64,000 nt of DNA from a bacterium (GCA_021846685.1 JAJZWL010000001.1:387-64386), one strand, 5' to 3'; counted from the stretch's first letter, positions 4,630-30,671 are shown. Notes: a model not told the origin generated them from the letters alone. Program-made: numbers and translations.

Positions 4630-4686
4630 TTTTATATTTATAGTATAAGAATTTACTCCTTACAGAAGAACTTCTATTTTAAATAA

Positions 4687-5007
4687 TTAAAGAGATGATC
4701 CAGTTGAAGTATTTTGAGAAAGAAGACTATTCAATTGAGAAAAACTAGTAGAATTAACATAATTTATAGCATTTGAAAGTCCTGTATATGAAGTAACTTT
4801 TGGTACTGAAGTTGCTGAATTTTGGGTACTTGTTGGTGTTTTCATAGTCATATTACTTTCAACATAAGACTGATAATTAGCAGCATTTACTAATTCTAAG
4901 AGAGCTATAGCAAAAAGCAATAAAAGTACTACTCCTAAAACTCGATATATAGTAATATCTTTTTTCAATGTTTTTATTTGTTCAAATTCACTTTTTTCTT
5001 CAGACAT
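4687..5007 (-). CDS. Small membrane-anchored hypothetical protein.
   Basis: One N-terminal TM helix followed by a Ser/Thr-rich tail. Immediately downstream of the 5010-5636 gene. Confidence 0.35.
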   Translation of the reverse strand: MSEEKSEFEQIKTLKKDITIYRVLGVVLLLLFAIALLELVNAANYQSYVESNMTMKTPTSTQNSATSVPKVTSYTGLSNAINYVNSTSFSQLNSLLSQNTSTGSSL

Positions 5008-5009
5008 AA

Positions 5010-5636
5010 TTATTTAGTAGTAGATAAAGTACTTTTATTCGTGCTACCGGTAGAACTTCTAACAGCAACTAAAAGATTAATTACTGCTTTCTTATATAAA
5101 TTCAGATCTGTAATTTCATTTTTCATATCAGTATTAAAAGCTAATATTTGTGTTTGAGGAGCAGAGTTATTACAAGAAAAATTACCAGAATCTAAACTAA
5201 ATTGATTTAATTGACCTTGAGCTGTATCTTGAGCTGTCAAAACAGCTGTTGATAAAGTTGCATAATTTGAAACTACAATACCTTTAGGCAAAAGAGAGTT
5301 ATTATAATAATCCTGAACCCTAGAAACAATAGTAGAGAATCTATTAATTATATTATTTGATAATTCATATAACTTTTTATCTCTATTTTTAACACTAGAT
5401 GCAATTTTGATGCATGCAGTTTGCAATCCATTCCCTGAGTGAGAAGTTCCAGCCCCCTTAGCACTACTAGCATTCGATCCATTTGTGGATGCAGCACTAG
5501 CATGAGAAGAAGCAGTACTTACATTATGAGAAGAAGCATTCCTTGAGTTAGAAGCAGCTGTTGATCTAGCATATACAGCTCCAGCGGAAACAGCTAATAC
5601 AAGAACAGTTACAGGTAATAAATATTTCAATTTCAT
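5010..5636 (-). CDS. Secreted Ser/Ala-rich hypothetical protein.
   Basis: Signal-peptide-like N-terminus (MKLKYLLPVTVLVLAVSAGAVYA), followed by low-complexity Ser/Ala/Asn-rich sequence. The region is locally GC-richer than its surroundings. Confidence 0.45.
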   Translation of the reverse strand: MKLKYLLPVTVLVLAVSAGAVYARSTAASNSRNASSHNVSTASSHASAASTNGSNASSAKGAGTSHSGNGLQTACIKIASSVKNRDKKLYELSNNIINRFSTIVSRVQDYYNNSLLPKGIVVSNYATLSTAVLTAQDTAQGQLNQFSLDSGNFSCNNSAPQTQILAFNTDMKNEITDLNLYKKAVINLLVAVRSSTGSTNKSTLSTTK

Positions 5637-23950: not shown

Positions 23951-23959
23951 TTATCCACA
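23951..23959 (+). promoter_or_regulatory. Perfect DnaA box (TTATCCACA) in the dnaA upstream region.
   Basis: Exact 9-mer consensus, 58 nt upstream of the dnaA start. Confidence 0.6.
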
Positions 23960-24016: not shown

Positions 24017-25351
24017 ATGCAAAATAATGTAAATGCTGTTTGGAAAATTGCATCTTCTCAAATAAAACTTAAAATTAATGAGAATAATTTTAAGATCTGG
24101 TTTAATAAAATTAAGCTAGAGTCTATAGATAATAATATTGCAACAATTTCATGTCAAAATTCATTTACTTCAGATTATATTCAAAAAAATTATCTTAATA
24201 TAACTAAGAATTCAATAAAGGAGGTTTATGGAAGAGATATTGATATTGTTTTTAAAGTAAGACCAGAGACTGTTAATACTCAAGAAGAGCCTATATTTTC
24301 AATACAAGAAGATAAAAAAATGTTATTATCTTCAAATTTAAATCCGAAATATCAAATAAAAAACTTTATAGTTGGTTCTTCAAACAGACTAGCACATGCT
24401 GCTGCATTAGCTATTATCGAATCTCCTGGTACATTATATAACCCTTTTTTCATATATGGAGGGGTTGGTTTGGGAAAAACACATCTTATGCAAGCTATAG
24501 GAAATGAAATCCTTTCAAAAAATCCAGATACAAAAATTACCTATATGAGTAGTGAAACATTACTTAATGATTTTATTAACTCTATAGTAAAAGGTAAAAA
24601 TGAGAATTTTAGAAAAAAATATAGAGAAAATGATGTATTAATAATAGATGATATACAATTTATATCTGGTAAAAAAGGTATTCAGGAAGAATTTTTTCAT
24701 ACTTTCAATACACTTCAGCAATCAAATAAGCAAATAATACTCGCCTCAGATAGACATCCTAAAGAAATAGAAAATTTAGAAGAAAGATTGGTTTCTCGTT
24801 TTGAAGGAGGTATGGTAGCTGATATAACAAATCCTGATGAAGAAATGAGAATTGCAATTTTAAGAAAGAAGTGTGAAGAAAAAAATATAAATATTGATGA
24901 AGATATAATAAATTTAATATCAGAAAATGTAAAATCTAATATTAGAGAATTAGAAGGTGTTTTAACAAAAATAGTTGCTACTGAAAATATACTGAATAAA
25001 AAATTAAATAAAGATGAAGTATCTAAATTAATAGGAATTCATATAAAAAAAAGAAATAGGATACTTAAACCTAAGGATATTATAATAACAGTTTGTGAAA
25101 AATTTGGTATATCTCAAAGAGAGATAATTGGAACAAAGAGAACTAATAGAATTGTTCTTCCAAGACAGATTGCTATGTATATGTTAAGAAAAGATCTAAA
25201 TTTACCACTTATGGAAGTTGCAAATATACTTAAAAGAAAAGATCATACAACAGTTTTACATGCTGTGGATAAGATAGAGAAGTTAATTGAAAATGATATG
25301 TACTTAAAAGAAGAAATTAGTGATATAAGAGGCTCTTTAGAAACAAATTAA
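24017..25351 (+). CDS. dnaA: Chromosomal replication initiator protein DnaA.
   Basis: AAA+ Walker A GGVGLGKTHL, and a C-terminal DnaA-box binding domain (VLPRQIAMYMLRK..TVLHA). Confidence 0.95.
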   Translation: MQNNVNAVWKIASSQIKLKINENNFKIWFNKIKLESIDNNIATISCQNSFTSDYIQKNYLNITKNSIKEVYGRDIDIVFKVRPETVNTQEEPIFSIQEDKKMLLSSNLNPKYQIKNFIVGSSNRLAHAAALAIIESPGTLYNPFFIYGGVGLGKTHLMQAIGNEILSKNPDTKITYMSSETLLNDFINSIVKGKNENFRKKYRENDVLIIDDIQFISGKKGIQEEFFHTFNTLQQSNKQIILASDRHPKEIENLEERLVSRFEGGMVADITNPDEEMRIAILRKKCEEKNINIDEDIINLISENVKSNIRELEGVLTKIVATENILNKKLNKDEVSKLIGIHIKKRNRILKPKDIIITVCEKFGISQREIIGTKRTNRIVLPRQIAMYMLRKDLNLPLMEVANILKRKDHTTVLHAVDKIEKLIENDMYLKEEISDIRGSLETN

Positions 25352-25661: not shown

Positions 25662-26798
25662 ATGGATATTAATATTACAAGAGAAAATTTTATAGAACTT
25701 TTAAATTTTAATATTAAGACACAAAATACAAAAATTAGTATTCCTATACTTTCGAATGTTTGTATAGAAGCTAAAGACAGTAAATTAATATTAAAAAGTA
25801 CTAATCTTGAAAATAGTATTATATCTGTTTCTGGAGTAGAAATTATAAAAGAAGGTACTACAACTGTAAATTTGAAAAATATATATGATTTTGTATCTAA
25901 TCTTAAGTCAGAAATTATAAATATTAAATTAGATAATAATATATTAACCATATCTGACGAAAATAATCATATTTCATTAAATACAATATCTTCAGAAGAA
26001 TTCCCTGATATACCTGATTCTAAAGGTAATTTAATATTAAAAATACCTGCTTTTGATTTCTCAACAGCTTTAGATAAAGTTACTTTTGCAACTTCTACAG
26101 ATATTTCTAAATTAATTTTATCTGGAGTTTTATTTGAATTTGATGATAAAAACTTAAAATTGGTTGGTATTAATGGATTTAGATTTTCAAGTGTTGAAGT
26201 AGATAATATAATTAAAGAAACTAAAGAAACTTTACCTAATATTATTGTACCTTCTTATTCTCTTGATAGTGTGTCTAAAATAATAAAAGAATTAGATATG
26301 GATAATGATTCTTATGTCTATGTATATATATTTGGAAAAAACAATCAAATCATATTTGAAATTGAAAACGTAACTTTTGTAGTAAGGTTAATAGAAGGTA
26401 AGTATCCTGATTATTTAAAAATTTTTCCTACTGATTATGAATCTGAATTTACTCTTTTAACTCAGGATCTAAAAGATGTAGTAAAATTATCTAGTATATT
26501 CAGATTTAAGGATATTTCTAGAATATATTTAGATATTGATCCTAAAGAAGGTATTATTAAATTTCAATCTTCATTAAAGGAAGTTGGAGAAAGTAATTCT
26601 ATAATAAAAACTAAAATAAAAGGAAATAAAGTTATTGCAAGTTTTAATTCTAAATACATTATGGATTTTTTAAATCATATAGATTCTGAATATATTAATA
26701 TATATATTAATCCATCTTCTTTAAAAAAAGTATCAAAATTTCAAGAAAAAGATAATAGTAAATTTACATACTTAGTTATGCCTTTAATGGAAAGGTAA
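25662..26798 (+). CDS. dnaN: DNA polymerase III beta subunit (sliding clamp).
   Basis: 378 aa. The N-terminus (MDINITRENFIELLNFNIKTQNTKISIPILSNVCIEAKDSKLIL) follows the DnaN pattern, consistent with a three-domain length, and the gene is in the canonical position after dnaA. Confidence 0.9.
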   Translation: MDINITRENFIELLNFNIKTQNTKISIPILSNVCIEAKDSKLILKSTNLENSIISVSGVEIIKEGTTTVNLKNIYDFVSNLKSEIINIKLDNNILTISDENNHISLNTISSEEFPDIPDSKGNLILKIPAFDFSTALDKVTFATSTDISKLILSGVLFEFDDKNLKLVGINGFRFSSVEVDNIIKETKETLPNIIVPSYSLDSVSKIIKELDMDNDSYVYVYIFGKNNQIIFEIENVTFVVRLIEGKYPDYLKIFPTDYESEFTLLTQDLKDVVKLSSIFRFKDISRIYLDIDPKEGIIKFQSSLKEVGESNSIIKTKIKGNKVIASFNSKYIMDFLNHIDSEYINIYINPSSLKKVSKFQEKDNSKFTYLVMPLMER

Positions 26799-26890
26799 TA
26801 TTATTTTAATAAATTATTCGAGGATTTGTAAATTAAGTAAAACAATATATCGTCAAAATAGATTGAACTTATACACAACCAAATATTGAT

Positions 26891-28024
26891 TTATTTCCTA
26901 GAAAATAATGTATCAGCAAAATTGTTGCTCGTAATCACAGTAAACGTATTTTTAGGGTACAGTACATTAAACTCATTAGGCAACTTGGCTTGTTTTTCCC
27001 TCCATTTAAACTCAAAAGCACTCATGTTACCATTATACTCTTCAATAAGATCAATTTCTTTTTGGCTATAACTACGCCAGAAAAAATAGTTAGGTTTATA
27101 TTCTCCATATTCGTTTGATTTTATTCTCTCTGTCACACAAAAGTTTTCCCATAATGCACCTACATCATTACGTAGATTCAATTCATTAAAATTTCTAATA
27201 AGACTGTTGCGCAAACCAAGGTCTATGAAATATATTTTGCGTAGTTTTCCTACTTCACTGCGCGGGTTTCTTTTTAAAGCTGGAAGACGATAAATAACGA
27301 AAGTCTGTTCCAGTAGAAAGATATATCTCTCAATAGTTTTGATATCTACTTCTAACAGGTTTGACAATTCCCTAAGACTAACCTCATTTCCTAATTGTAA
27401 GGCTAATGCTTGGAGAAGCTTGGTTAATAAAGGAGCCTTCTTGAGGTTTTCATATTTCAATATGTCTTTGAATAAATAATTGGAACTTAGCTCTGTAAGT
27501 GCATCCACAGCTTCACTGTCTGACATATTCCATATCATTGGATATGAACCAAATAGAAGCATCCTCTTCATGGTCTGATCTGAGATTAATCTATCACCTT
27601 GAGTAATTTCTATAAATGAGAGAGGTTCTAAATGAAAAGTCCAAGATCTTCCAGTCAATGGCTCACTAATTTTATTAGCAAGGTCAAAACTAGAGCTACC
27701 AGTCGCAATAATTTGCATTTCAGGATAATTTTCCACAAGAAGTTTTAAAGTAATCCCAATATTTTCTACTCTTTGGGCTTCATCAATTACCACAAGTTCG
27801 TAATCCCCTATAAAACTTTTTAATTCTGCAGCACTTCTATTTGTTAGATTAGCCACTACACTTGGTTCATCTCCATTTAAATAACGTCCTTTTTTCGAAG
27901 ATGTATTTAAAATTTTTTTGCTAAGAATAGTCTTTCCAACCTGGCGTGCCCCATACAAAATGATAACTCTCCCTTTGTATAGATGCTTTTCAATATTATC
28001 TTGTAGCATTCTATGAAATATCAT
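26891..28024 (-). CDS. AAA-family ATPase with a DUF4143-type C-terminal domain.
   Basis: Walker A GARQVGKT and Walker B VVIDEAQ. The architecture matches the AAA_14 plus DUF4143 family common in CPR and archaea. Confidence 0.7.
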   Translation of the reverse strand: MIFHRMLQDNIEKHLYKGRVIILYGARQVGKTILSKKILNTSSKKGRYLNGDEPSVVANLTNRSAAELKSFIGDYELVVIDEAQRVENIGITLKLLVENYPEMQIIATGSSSFDLANKISEPLTGRSWTFHLEPLSFIEITQGDRLISDQTMKRMLLFGSYPMIWNMSDSEAVDALTELSSNYLFKDILKYENLKKAPLLTKLLQALALQLGNEVSLRELSNLLEVDIKTIERYIFLLEQTFVIYRLPALKRNPRSEVGKLRKIYFIDLGLRNSLIRNFNELNLRNDVGALWENFCVTERIKSNEYGEYKPNYFFWRSYSQKEIDLIEEYNGNMSAFEFKWREKQAKLPNEFNVLYPKNTFTVITSNNFADTLFSRK

Positions 28025-28100
28025 AACTTAATTATATATGAATTGGTAGATACAAGTCAATCAATTATATATGAATTAGTAGACTTGTGTAAATAACTAT

Positions 28101-28495
28101 CCTCCTGACTTGTCCAAATTAGTGTGTTTTTATAAAGTTTAGGATAGTTTTATCCGCAATTCTTTAATATCATCTGTTAATTGTAGAGGTAATATTACTT
28201 TTTCTTCTGTAATTTTATTTAGTATTATTGACTCTGTAATACTTTTTAATAGTTTATTTATTTGTTTTATAGATTTCCTTTATGTAAGTTCAATGTATTT
28301 ACATATTGAAAGTGCTATGAAACATATTCGTAGATGTTTCTTTATTATTGCTTCTTTCTTGAGGTGGTATTTGACTTGGATAGAAGATTTGATTTTGCTA
28401 CCTAAATGACTTCTCTATATGCCATAGATTATTATAATGGTTTATGATAGCATCATCTGTCTCTTCATCTAAATTCGCGTAGTATCATCTTACTC
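28101..28495 (-). pseudogene. Decayed inverted remnant of an IS1634-family element: 3-prime end of a transposase gene plus a terminal inverted repeat.
   Basis: The minus strand translates to WHIEKSFR...(stops), matching WHVEKAFRITKG near the C-terminus of the intact transposase. The end sequence CCTCCTGACTTGTCCAAATTAGTGTG (28101-28126) matches the IS terminal inverted repeat. Confidence 0.5.
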
Positions 28496-28621
28496 AAAGT
28501 AATAATAGAATATATTTAAAGAAAATTATTAGAGGATTTGAAAATTAAGTAAAACTACCTATATTGATAGTAAATATAAAAAATGACCTATATAACATTA
28601 AAACTATATTCCTTATATTCT
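28496..28621 (+). repeat. 126-bp direct repeat, left copy, flanking the IS.
   Basis: Read by eye as identical to 30239-30364 over the whole 126 bp. Confidence 0.85.
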
Positions 28622-30240
28622 CCTGACTTGTCCAACTGAGTATAATAGAAAATAGTGATACTGTATTAGAGCCATAAAATGACAAAAAAGCAATAAAATG
28701 GCATACTAAGGTTGTAATGATGTGGAAAATTAGAACTACAAAGACAGGCTCTGGAAATATTGCTGTACAAGTTGTGGAGAATTCCTCCCATACTGTTAAT
28801 ATAATTAAGCATATTGGATCTGCTAAAAATGAAGAAGAGTTAGAAGATCTCAAAAAACTTGGATCTGAATATATAGAGAAACATAATCTTGATTCTGGAT
28901 TCATCCCTCTCTTTAATGATAAGAAAAGTTCATTAATATCAATAGATAACCTCTCTGTAAAAGAATCTCATCATACTTTTGCATATGAGTTTTTATCTCA
29001 TATATACAATATAAATGGATTTGATAACATTAATGATTCCATACTTCGTGATTTAGCTATCATGAGGATTCTCGAACCAGTATCCAAGGAAGAGTCAATA
29101 AGATTGCTCAAAGAATATTTTAATGTTAAATATTCACATGGAGATCTTCACAGAGGATTAAAAAGAATTCTCGAGAAGAAAGATAAGATAGAGAATGTTG
29201 CCGTAGAATATGCAAAGAAGACACTCAATTTTGATTTCTCTTTGGTATTTTATGATGTTACCAATCTGTATTTTGAATCATTTAAATCTGATGATTTTAG
29301 ACAACCTGGATTTAACAAAGATGGTAAATCTATGCAACCACAAGTTGCCATAGGACTTGTGGTAAATCAAGATGGATATCCAATAGCTATAGATATGTTT
29401 GAGGGTAAGAAGTATGAAGGACACACATTCCTCCTTGTAATATTGGGTTTAAAGGAAAAATACAATATTAAGACTCTCACAGTAGTAGCAGATGCAGGTA
29501 TGCTCTCATACAAGAATATGGAAGAGCTAAATAATGAAGGAATATCCTTCATTGTTGGAGCCAGACTCTTTCAGGTTGATCGGGATCTATTAAAAGAGAT
29601 TGTAAATAAACTTAACATGAAAGAAGGTAAATATATAGAATCAGATACAAAGTATGGAGCCTTAATATGTGATTACTCTCGCAAAAGAGCATCCAAAGAT
29701 AAATCAGATAGAGAAAAACAGATAAAGAAAGCAAATTACCATATAGAAAACCCTACAAAACATAAAAGACCAAGATTCGTACTAAAACTAGATAAAGAGA
29801 ATTTTGAGTTAAATACTGAATTAATAGAATTTGATAAGCTTAAAGAAGGAATAAAAGGATATTACACTAATCTAAACAATATATCTCCACAGTTAATAAT
29901 TTCAAGATATCATGATCTGTGGCATGTAGAAAAAGCTTTCAGGATTACAAAAGGTGATTTACAAGCAAGACCAATATTCCACAGAAAAGAAGATATGATA
30001 AAAACTCATATTCTAATAGTTTTTGTAGCACTATGTATATCTAAATTATTAGAATTAAAAACTGGATTATCCATAAAAGTCATAAAGAAAAATATATTTC
30101 CTATTGTGGATGTTGTATTAATTGATAAATTAACAAAACGAGAATTCATTAAACGTCAAGAATTTCCAGATTCTGATGTGTTTTCCAAAATCAAAGAATT
30201 ATATACATAATCCGTGCATACTAATTGGACAACTCAGGAA
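28619..30240 (+). mobile_element. Intact IS1634-family (IS4 superfamily) insertion sequence.
   Basis: Terminal inverted repeats CTCCTGACTTGTCCAACTGAGT (left) and TTCCTGAGTTGTCCAATTAGT (right, reverse complement) bracket a single 497-aa transposase ORF. Long perfect direct repeats flank it, as is typical of IS1634. Confidence 0.75.
28717..30210 (+). CDS. IS1634-family DDE transposase.
   Basis: N-terminus MMWKIRTTKTGSGNIAVQVV is typical of IS1634 transposases. 497 aa, with the C-terminal WHVEKAFR block. Confidence 0.75.
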   Translation: MMWKIRTTKTGSGNIAVQVVENSSHTVNIIKHIGSAKNEEELEDLKKLGSEYIEKHNLDSGFIPLFNDKKSSLISIDNLSVKESHHTFAYEFLSHIYNINGFDNINDSILRDLAIMRILEPVSKEESIRLLKEYFNVKYSHGDLHRGLKRILEKKDKIENVAVEYAKKTLNFDFSLVFYDVTNLYFESFKSDDFRQPGFNKDGKSMQPQVAIGLVVNQDGYPIAIDMFEGKKYEGHTFLLVILGLKEKYNIKTLTVVADAGMLSYKNMEELNNEGISFIVGARLFQVDRDLLKEIVNKLNMKEGKYIESDTKYGALICDYSRKRASKDKSDREKQIKKANYHIENPTKHKRPRFVLKLDKENFELNTELIEFDKLKEGIKGYYTNLNNISPQLIISRYHDLWHVEKAFRITKGDLQARPIFHRKEDMIKTHILIVFVALCISKLLELKTGLSIKVIKKNIFPIVDVVLIDKLTKREFIKRQEFPDSDVFSKIKELYT

Positions 30241-30364
30241 AGTAATAATAGAATATATTTAAAGAAAATTATTAGAGGATTTGAAAATTAAGTAAAACTA
30301 CCTATATTGATAGTAAATATAAAAAATGACCTATATAACATTAAAACTATATTCCTTATATTCT
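30239..30364 (+). repeat. 126-bp direct repeat, right copy, flanking the IS.
   Basis: Read by eye as identical to 28496-28621 over the whole 126 bp. Confidence 0.85.
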
Positions 30365-30389
30365 AGGTGGTCATATGAAATTTAAATTG

Positions 30390-30671
30390 CTATATTTTTT
30401 CAACCCTTATTTTTAAATCTTTAATCTCTTCAGGATAATTTTTCTGTAATATTTCTATTATTTCAAATTTTCTTAATAGAATTTCTTGTGCAATATTAGG
30501 ATTATTTGATATTAACCTTATATTCCCCTTTTTTGTGTTTTTTAATTTAATATTTTTTTTTACTTTAAATTGTAAAATTTTTTCTATGGAGTTGTATATC
30601 AAATCTCTTTTTTTTATTTTTTCATTAATATCTGAAATAGAGAGAGTATCTATTTTTATTTTTTTAAGCAT
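30390..30671 (-). CDS. Small basic hypothetical protein.
   Basis: 93-aa ORF that overlaps the upstream gene by 8 nt. Confidence 0.35.
   Translation of the reverse strand: MLKKIKIDTLSISDINEKIKKRDLIYNSIEKILQFKVKKNIKLKNTKKGNIRLISNNPNIAQEILLRKFEIIEILQKNYPEEIKDLKIRVEKI

Follow-up and report, generated by a model that had tools for sequence, protein, structure and literature searches.

An IS1634-family insertion sequence between perfect 126-bp direct repeats downstream of dnaN in a Patescibacteria genome

Long target-site duplications in the IS1634 family

The IS1634 family of ISfinder corresponds to the former IS1549 group and was split from IS4. The IS4 family proper features a complete YREK motif and target-site duplications of approximately 8-13 bp. 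Members of the IS1634 family have a length of 1,500-2,000 bp and ends of the form C-----YT, and the arginine of YREK is absent in most of them (PMC2266710). The direct repeats of IS1634 and IS1549 are variable and range from 8 to 514 bp, whereas those of most family members are 5-6 bp long and AT-rich; as of the 2008 review of the family, no mechanistic model for the variable duplication length had been proposed (PMC2266710). ISGka5 of Geobacillus kaustophilus, for which transposition has been shown experimentally, features duplications of 5-6 bp (PMC8024623).

The element described here lies in a stretch of 64,000 nt (the window) and is flanked by direct repeats of 126 bp. Its host is assigned to the Patescibacteria (CPR) by the nearest named DnaA (61% identity) and by L25 homologues. 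With IS1634, the type element from Mycoplasma mycoides subsp. mycoides SC, it shares the DDE family model, a single ORF, a length of ~1.6-1.9 kb, imperfect terminal inverted repeats, long variable direct repeats, and a small AT-rich host genome; however, the two are not closely related, the comparison being made through the family model and the description of IS1634. IS1549 of Mycobacterium smegmatis likewise has long variable repeats, but IS1549 and the IS1634 family transposase genes of Rhodococcus and Mycobacterium plasmids differ from the window element in sequence (~31-33% amino acid identity) and in having high-GC actinobacterial hosts. Typical members such as ISGka5 belong to the same family, yet their duplications measure 5-6 bp as against 126 bp here and 104-137 bp in close relatives. 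Judged by its sequence, this is a new IS1634-family member, ordinary in kind, and it fits the long-duplication subgroup rather than the 5-6-bp majority.

Boundaries and transposase of the element

The element, its parts, and the repeats that bound it are the following.

28622-30238, plus strand: intact IS1634-family insertion sequence of 1,617 bp, bounded by its tips and the direct repeats
28622-28644, plus strand: left inverted repeat (IRL), CCTGACTTGTCCAACTGAGTAT..., matching the reverse complement of the right end at 13/14 positions, or ~20/23 with one gap
30216-30238, plus strand: right inverted repeat (IRR), ...ATACTAATTGGACAACTCAGG, carrying an outward-facing -35-like TGGACA
28717-30210, plus strand: transposase gene, 497 aa, DDE type (NF033559, Pfam DDE_Tnp_1)
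28496-28621, no strand: left copy of the 126-bp target-site duplication, 126/126 identical to the right copy
30239-30364, no strand: right copy of the 126-bp target-site duplication, 126/126 identical to the left copy

A preliminary description of this DNA, made from the sequence, had reported an intact element with terminal inverted repeats and one transposase of 497 aa, and this holds for 28622-30238 with the qualification that the tips are imperfect repeats. The 1,617 bp begin with CCTGACTTGTCCAA and end with TTGGACAACTCAGG; the tips CCTGACTTGTCCAA and CCTGAGTTGTCCAA match at 13 of 14 positions, or at ~20 of 23 if one gap is allowed, and enclose the single ORF at 28717-30210 on the plus strand. 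The IRL and IRR tips recur in relatives of the element, and within the 64-kb window no further copy or tip was found besides the relic described below. A promoter-like sequence, TGGACA-17-TAGAAT, lies across the outer end of the IRR at 30226-30254 (as a consensus match only).

The assignment to the IS1634 family, proposed in the same description, is borne out by the transposase, which scores 308.4 bits against the NCBIfam IS1634-family equivalog NF033559 (cut-off 100, E = 1e-91, residues 28-463) and carries Pfam DDE_Tnp_1 at 56 bits. No other family is matched more closely: the next-best family model, IS4, reaches 37.6 bits against a cut-off of 115, and the scores against the IS4, IS1380, IS1182, and IS701 models are all far under their cut-offs. 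Size and tips agree with the family as well—1,617 bp, one ORF of 497 aa, and tips CCTGACTT and CCTGAGTT of the form C-----YT. The hallmarks of the IS4 family proper are missing, since the YREK arginine is absent, the IS4 model stays under its cut-off, and the duplication measures 126 bp. The C-terminal motif of the transposase reads Y398-HD-L401-WHV-E405-KAFRIT-K412, that is Y-x2-L-x3-E-x6-K, with a leucine in place of the YREK arginine. In an alignment with about 15-16 relatives, D180 (in FYDVT), D259 (in VADAG), Y398, E405, and K412 are invariant, and D180, D259, and E405 form the putative catalytic DDE triad.

The best annotated relatives in a plasmid collection are IS1634 family transposases of Rhodococcus and Mycobacterium, at ~31-33% amino acid identity and 95% coverage; no solved structure was found among the relatives of the transposase. 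A peptide-pattern search of a one-genome-per-species collection yielded no close relatives, and a scan with the right-end sequence picked up just three partial copies, which all come from a single unclassified MAG. The clade of the window element was found in uncultured Patescibacteria and environmental contigs only.

Direct repeats and empty sites

The repeats, described by eye as identical, align at 126/126 positions, and the identity ends at both outer edges. An exact look-up of the neighbouring proteins retrieved the same locus from many samples, and at least five independent assemblies (L001, L002, L003/L020, L018, and L010) show the filled site complete with both junctions. Empty sites, for which a comparison with related strains had been proposed, occur in L007/L017 (GCA_027425275.1), L009 (JGI 3300045129), and L019: these run collinear to the window except that exactly 1,743 bp, the sum of 1,617 and 126, are missing, and each keeps a single copy of the 126 bp. 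Because the empty alleles lack exactly the IS and 126 bp, the geometry is that of a target-site duplication. The single-copy empty sites, together with the long abutting repeats that recur in the clade (see below), uphold the original reading of a long target-site duplication.

A search of JGI metagenome contigs with the start of the 126 bp gave no match, in a collection evidently without the JGI sample of L009 itself. Rfam returned nothing over the locus and the whole window, so the 126 bp is not a known RNA. The idea that it represents the lost left end of an old element was rejected, as it bears no similarity to the IS.

The element is very probably a recently inserted, apparently functional IS1634-family DDE element that copied 126 bp of its target by staggered insertion. 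The basis for transposition is comparative: presence/absence polymorphism among strains that are ~99.9% identical, identical repeats, and an intact ORF.

Duplications in related elements

A second before-and-after pair comes from a sister species, in which an element of 1,596 bp with the same tips and a transposase (P0004) 72% identical to that of the window lies downstream of the L25 gene. The empty alleles (L126, L128) hold one copy of a 106-bp sequence, and in the filled alleles this sequence stands on both sides of the element, the left junction being covered by L127, the right one by L031, and both by L034. All copies, that of the empty allele included, are identical at 106/106 positions, and the flanks show 0 mismatches in 4,641 + 2,657 nt. 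For the sister element, comparison of these alleles shows the exact duplication of an unchanged target of 106 bp.

Perfect or near-perfect abutting repeats elsewhere in the clade measure 137 bp (L029) and 104 bp (L035, a 68% relative), and in metagenome elements of 41-53% identity they measure 73, 57, 41, 35, and 18 bp. The duplications start with A in 8 of 9 cases and end with T in all 9, which places each strand transfer 5' of an A. A helical periodicity was considered and is not evident in the lengths seen. Approximately 16 distant relatives with long flanks lack an abutting repeat; either long duplications are not universal or the flanks of those copies are hybrid. Recombination between copies, as in L032 and L125, produces such hybrid flanks and is likely one reason for the missing repeats.

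Model of the insertion

By analogy with general DDE transposition, the insertion can be modelled as staggered strand transfer followed by repair synthesis. The 3'-OH ends of the element would attack the target strands, and the transposase would join both element ends to opposite strands, 126 bp apart and with a 5' stagger. The top strand would be cut at 28495|28496 and the bottom strand after the base whose two present copies are 28621 and 30364. Gap filling by the host would then copy 126 nt on each side and leave perfect direct repeats. That the target was copied unchanged in the 126-bp insertion, too, is suggested by the identity of the two copies and by the 106-bp case. The spacing of the two strand transfers (18-137 bp) seems to be under little constraint, unlike the base at the transfer site; such loose spacing with a fixed base would point to weakly coupled transfers rather than to a rigid synaptic geometry.

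Divergence of the 126-bp sequence

Every empty allele (types V1-V3) has 9-14 differences from the 126-bp repeat of the window (type W), with flanks that are ~99.9% identical; the V types differ by 3-4% among themselves. In L007, 14 of the 21 mismatches over 12,282 nt sit within the 126 bp. None of the empty alleles found carries a W-type sequence. In L021 and L022, the left flank is joined to a V-type copy, after which the contig ends. In L014, the IS is followed by a right copy of V1 type, converted from position 39 onward, and the flank carries L012-type SNPs at 30504, 30712, and 30733. As an observation in its own right, evolution is far faster in the 126 bp between the nick sites than in the surrounding sequence.

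The W/V divergence is not a by-product of transposition, because the W copies are identical and no such effect is seen in the 106-bp case; error-prone gap filling was rejected on the same two counts, the sister repeat being equal to its empty allele. A diversity-generating retroelement was rejected as well, the substitutions not being adenine-specific. An intrinsically hypervariable spacer is possible, given the distances among the V types.

For the divergence, the preferred reading, though a tentative one, is an old or introgressed IS-bearing haplotype: the duplication may have formed in a diverged lineage, from which the repeat-IS-repeat unit introgressed by homologous recombination, or it may be an old polymorphism, the flanks having been homogenised later in either case. 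The repeats would have escaped homogenisation because exchange within them would delete the element. The concentration of the L007 mismatches in the 126 bp agrees with this, L014 with its V-type right copy looks like ongoing erosion, and the hybrid-flank contigs L125 and L032 indicate that IS copies recombine in these populations. However, no donor lineage with W was found, the spread among V alleles may mean that the spacer is just hypervariable, and the confinement of the W/V difference to the 126 bp would be a coincidence unless the linkage argument holds. An old or introgressed haplotype alters the place and time of the duplication and leaves its mechanism as modelled above.

It is very unlikely that the 126 bp was carried by the element—as a 1,743-bp circle or unit integrated by homologous recombination, or through one-ended transposition—with the repeats resembling attachment sites. 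The 9-14 differences between W and all V types amid nearly identical flanks would suit such an event, L014 has the arrangement expected of a crossover in positions 1-38, and L004 is a contig of 1,862 bp with a terminal redundancy of 119-126 bp. Yet one crossover between W and V would be expected to leave a pair of chimeric copies that are not identical, whereas five assemblies have W on both sides; other copies in the clade have unrelated repeats with lengths of 18-137 bp, and the 106-bp repeat is exactly the resident empty allele. L004 and L006 are the expected output of a de Bruijn assembler for a repeat-flanked element, and L014, with its L012 flank SNPs, reads as an ordinary recombinant.

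An assembly artefact, in which a short repeat or a strain mixture was misresolved, is a very unlikely explanation of the direct repeats. In its favour, the source is a metagenome-assembled genome, several short contigs stop within the 126 bp or at its edges (L004-L006, L011, L013, L016), and the assembly GCA_021843725.1 mixes two alleles (L011, L022). Against it, at least five assemblies made independently from different samples contain both junctions, among them MEGAHIT contigs with a k of 141, which exceeds the 126 bp, and filled and empty alleles differ by exactly the IS and 126 bp.

The relic and the dnaN-proximal slot

The sequence to the left of the repeats contains four further features.

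28104-28495, minus strand: relic of an older, diverged IS1634-family element, comprising the right-end tip and a stretch of the transposase (residues 379-485) broken by one frameshift and several stops
28030-28083, no strand: two occurrences of a 21-nt block, starting 33 nt apart and 20/21 identical, upstream of the start codon of the ATPase gene
26891-28024, minus strand: AAA_14 + DUF4143 ATPase gene (Pfam), absent from L119/L120, part of an island between dnaN and a 93-aa gene
26814-26843, plus strand: paralogue of a 30-nt motif in the 126 bp (28526-28555 and 30269-30298), with at most 3 mismatches

The relic had been taken for a decayed, inverted second copy of the element. It is real, lies on the minus strand, and has the frameshift and the stops, but it derives from a diverged relative and not from a copy of this element: its identity to the intact element is 35-45% at the amino acid level and ~62-67% at the DNA level. 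By tblastn, residues 379-409 are placed at 28493-28401 (45% identity) and residues 412-485 at 28390-28172 (35% identity), in two minus-strand frames that imply one frameshift, and several in-frame stops are present in addition. WHIEKSFR of the relic aligns with WHVEKAFR of the intact transposase. An inverted-repeat tip is present as described, but the tip CCTGACTTGTCCAA starts at 28104 rather than at 28101 (given before as 28101-28126); the bases just inside it, ATTAGTGTG, are of right-end type. The relic predates the present insertion, since it is already there, unchanged, in the empty-site strains, and it probably stems from a previous insertion at this slot by another member of the clade.

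Of the ~30-bp imperfect tandem duplication reported at ~28027-28090, what stands is a 21-nt block that recurs once (28030-28050 and 28063-28083); the remainder of the 33-nt unit differs, and Tandem Repeats Finder reported nothing at 28030-28083. This segment overlaps two strong promoter-like sites on the minus strand, TTTACA-18-TATAAT and TTGACT-18-TATAAT. Fragments resembling IS tips overlap it as well.

Upstream of the element lie dnaA (24017-25351) and dnaN (25662-26798). The cumulative GC skew has its minimum at ~22-25 kb, and the only two perfect DnaA boxes, at 23951 and 25264, flank dnaA. The element is close to the likely origin, as had been noted, with a distance of roughly 3-5 kb rather than 2-4 kb.

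In a sister species (L119, L120; DnaA 81% identical), 2 nt separate the dnaN stop codon from the homologue of the 93-aa gene, and the 3.6 kb from 26799 to 30389 are therefore lineage-specific; they contain the DUF4143 ATPase gene, the relic, and the repeat-IS-repeat block. A contig of 757 kb is known from a sister species. In L123 (DnaA 87% identical), the slot holds other genes and decayed IS1634-like pieces, flanked by a ~130-bp repeat whose copies are now ~92% identical. In L019, a second DUF4143 ATPase gene and a fragment of another IS1634-like transposase lie within the relic and split it. Across these lineages, the slot between dnaN and the next gene is an IS-seeded variable island. The earlier suggestion that IS activity may have caused local rearrangement can be put more strongly, with 26799-30389 absent in the sister species and other cargo elsewhere.

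With up to 3 mismatches allowed, the 30-nt motif occurs three times in the window and not once in 100 shuffles, and its dnaN-proximal copy is matched at 30/30 positions in L009. An ancient long target duplication comprising this paralogue and the 126 bp was considered and rejected, since in the sister species dnaN lies just 2 nt from the gene that follows.

Further junctions and a possibly re-used nick position

Two contigs depart from the simple filled and empty structures. In L125, a fragment of an istB-like gene stands to the left of the element and the W repeat to its right, and there must therefore be at least one further copy somewhere in the population. In L005, the IRL, not the IRR, is joined to the first base of the W 126 bp, in inverted orientation, and the other side carries a flank designated Z; neither the right end of the element nor flank Z was found in viral contigs. 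The L005 junction is not predicted by a single simple insertion. Homologous recombination or in-place inversion between copies was rejected as its origin: the IRR would stay at the start of the repeat, and flank Z is not the sequence expected under either model. The junction suggests an independent insertion in the opposite orientation at the same nick position, which is also the truncation point of the old relic.

Three ends coincide at 28495|28496, namely the IRR end of the present element, the IRL end of the oppositely oriented copy in L005, and the truncated end of the relic. Separately, the slot was hit independently in related lineages (L019, L123).

That this IS clade favours the slot downstream of dnaN, and specifically 28495|28496, for strand transfer and uses it repeatedly is regarded as improbable. 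If it were so, and if the fast evolution of the 126 bp were linked to it, a local DNA or protein feature near the origin would set both the choice of target and the long stagger, and cycles of insertion and loss could drive a divergence confined to the duplicated interval.

Meaning for the family and its hosts

The locus does not overturn the current understanding of the IS1634 family; its modest extra value lies in the clade-wide long duplications, the 5'-of-A rule, and the re-used slot. It adds natural comparisons of a site before and after insertion, resolved to the single nucleotide, for duplications of 126 bp and 106 bp. A further addition is a large IS clade, not described before, from uncultured bacteria with small genomes, with duplications of 18-137 bp as a common feature. 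It also adds a consistent rule, strand transfer 5' of an A, and with it raw material for reconstituting the reaction. For the hosts, the sequences indicate that even such reduced genomes of the Patescibacteria retain apparently active insertion sequences.

Divergence of the duplicated sequence

The 126-bp sequence duplicated on either side of the IS1634-family element (28496–28621 and 30239–30364) diverges far more than any other stretch when the window is compared with the corresponding loci of relatives (L007, L009, L014, L019, L021, and L022), the strains being otherwise near-identical. It differs between strains at 9 to 14 positions per 126 nt, compared with approximately 0.06% across the 12-kb flank. 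The alleles of the empty site fall into at least three types, which differ from each other by 3 to 4%, and an empty allele of the window's own 126-bp type was not found among the compared loci.

Nine duplications with lengths of 18 to 137 bp—at the loci L029, L034, L035, L057, L065, L066, L069, and L077 of other assemblies and in the window—all end with T and, with one exception, begin with A (8/9). Hence, both strand transfers take place 5′ of an A. The nine lengths show no obvious helical periodicity.

The 126 bp also carry a 30-nt motif, TTATTAGAGGATTTGAAAATTAAGTAAAAC, which recurs directly past the stop codon of dnaN. The copies of this motif and a promoter-like site at the right end of the element are as follows:

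26814–26843: copy of the 30-nt motif, directly past the dnaN stop codon
28526–28555: copy within the left 126 bp
30269–30298: copy within the right 126 bp
30226–30254: promoter-like site reading out of the element

By chance, no recurrence of the motif is expected. The dnaN-adjacent copy has two mismatches to the motif in the window and matches it at 30 of 30 positions in strain L009; in the empty-site alleles, the motif carries four to six changes. Its + strand features a promoter-like TTGAAA-16-TATATT. The outward-facing site combines a −35-like TGGACA in the right inverted repeat with TAGAAT in the flanking repeat, as judged by consensus match only.

Copies of the element with other junctions

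Two contigs carry the element with altered flanks. In L005 (ERZ27237444 k141_334689; positions 1–95 and 1693–1772), base 1 of the 126-bp sequence directly abuts the element's left end, in inverted orientation. Beyond the right end lies an 82-nt flank without a match in the window, any of the retrieved loci, or the viral contigs. Simple insertion or recombination between copies does not account for this arrangement. In L125 (ERZ27237063 k141_508819; positions 1–199), the copy has one nucleotide mismatch to that of the window and encodes a 496-aa transposase product. Its left end adjoins a fragment of an IstB-like (IS21 helper ATPase) gene, and its right end is followed by the window's 126 bp and then the normal flank. 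These hybrid flanks imply a further insertion site together with IS-mediated rearrangement.

The variable slot between dnaN and the 93-aa gene

The element lies in a slot that is bounded by dnaN and the following gene:

30390–30671, − strand: 93-aa gene, with a homologue in a related genome (L124, positions 1710–1976)

The entire interval 26799–30389 is missing in the sister species (L119 and L120), where dnaN and the 93-aa gene are 2 nt apart. The related lineage L123 has other cargo and decayed IS pieces in its place, with a flanking repeat of approximately 130 bp that is approximately 92% identical. In the more distant relative L124, an element of the same clade is located after dnaK instead. 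The L124 homologue of the 93-aa gene has a weak Pfam match to DciA and occupies the usual place following dnaA-dnaN; the 93-aa gene may be the replicative helicase-loader gene.

Relics and nested insertions

The old relic beside the element is itself interrupted in one strain: L019 carries approximately 2.2 kb (positions 316–2560) in place of window 28295–28435. This insert contains part of a third IS1634-like transposase (residues 30–152, 31% identity), running into the tip-like TTGGAAAACTCAGG, together with a second ATPase gene of the AAA_14/DUF4143 type and an ORF of 76 aa. A 5′-truncated remnant of the same kind as the window's occurs in L038 (MAG 'bacterium isolate DBS1-2.bin54'), where positions 4656–5156 correspond to the 3′-terminal part of an 89%-identical element (positions 1116–1617, including the right tip). 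Short repeats lie 5′ of the start codon of the window's ATPase gene:

28030–28093: repeated 21-nt blocks with two near-consensus promoter-like sites on the − strand (11/12 each)

A short fragment similar to the IS tip comes after each block, ACAAGTCA in one case and GACTTGT in the other. The blocks and fragments may be the footprint of older insertions that now serves as the source of the ATPase promoter.
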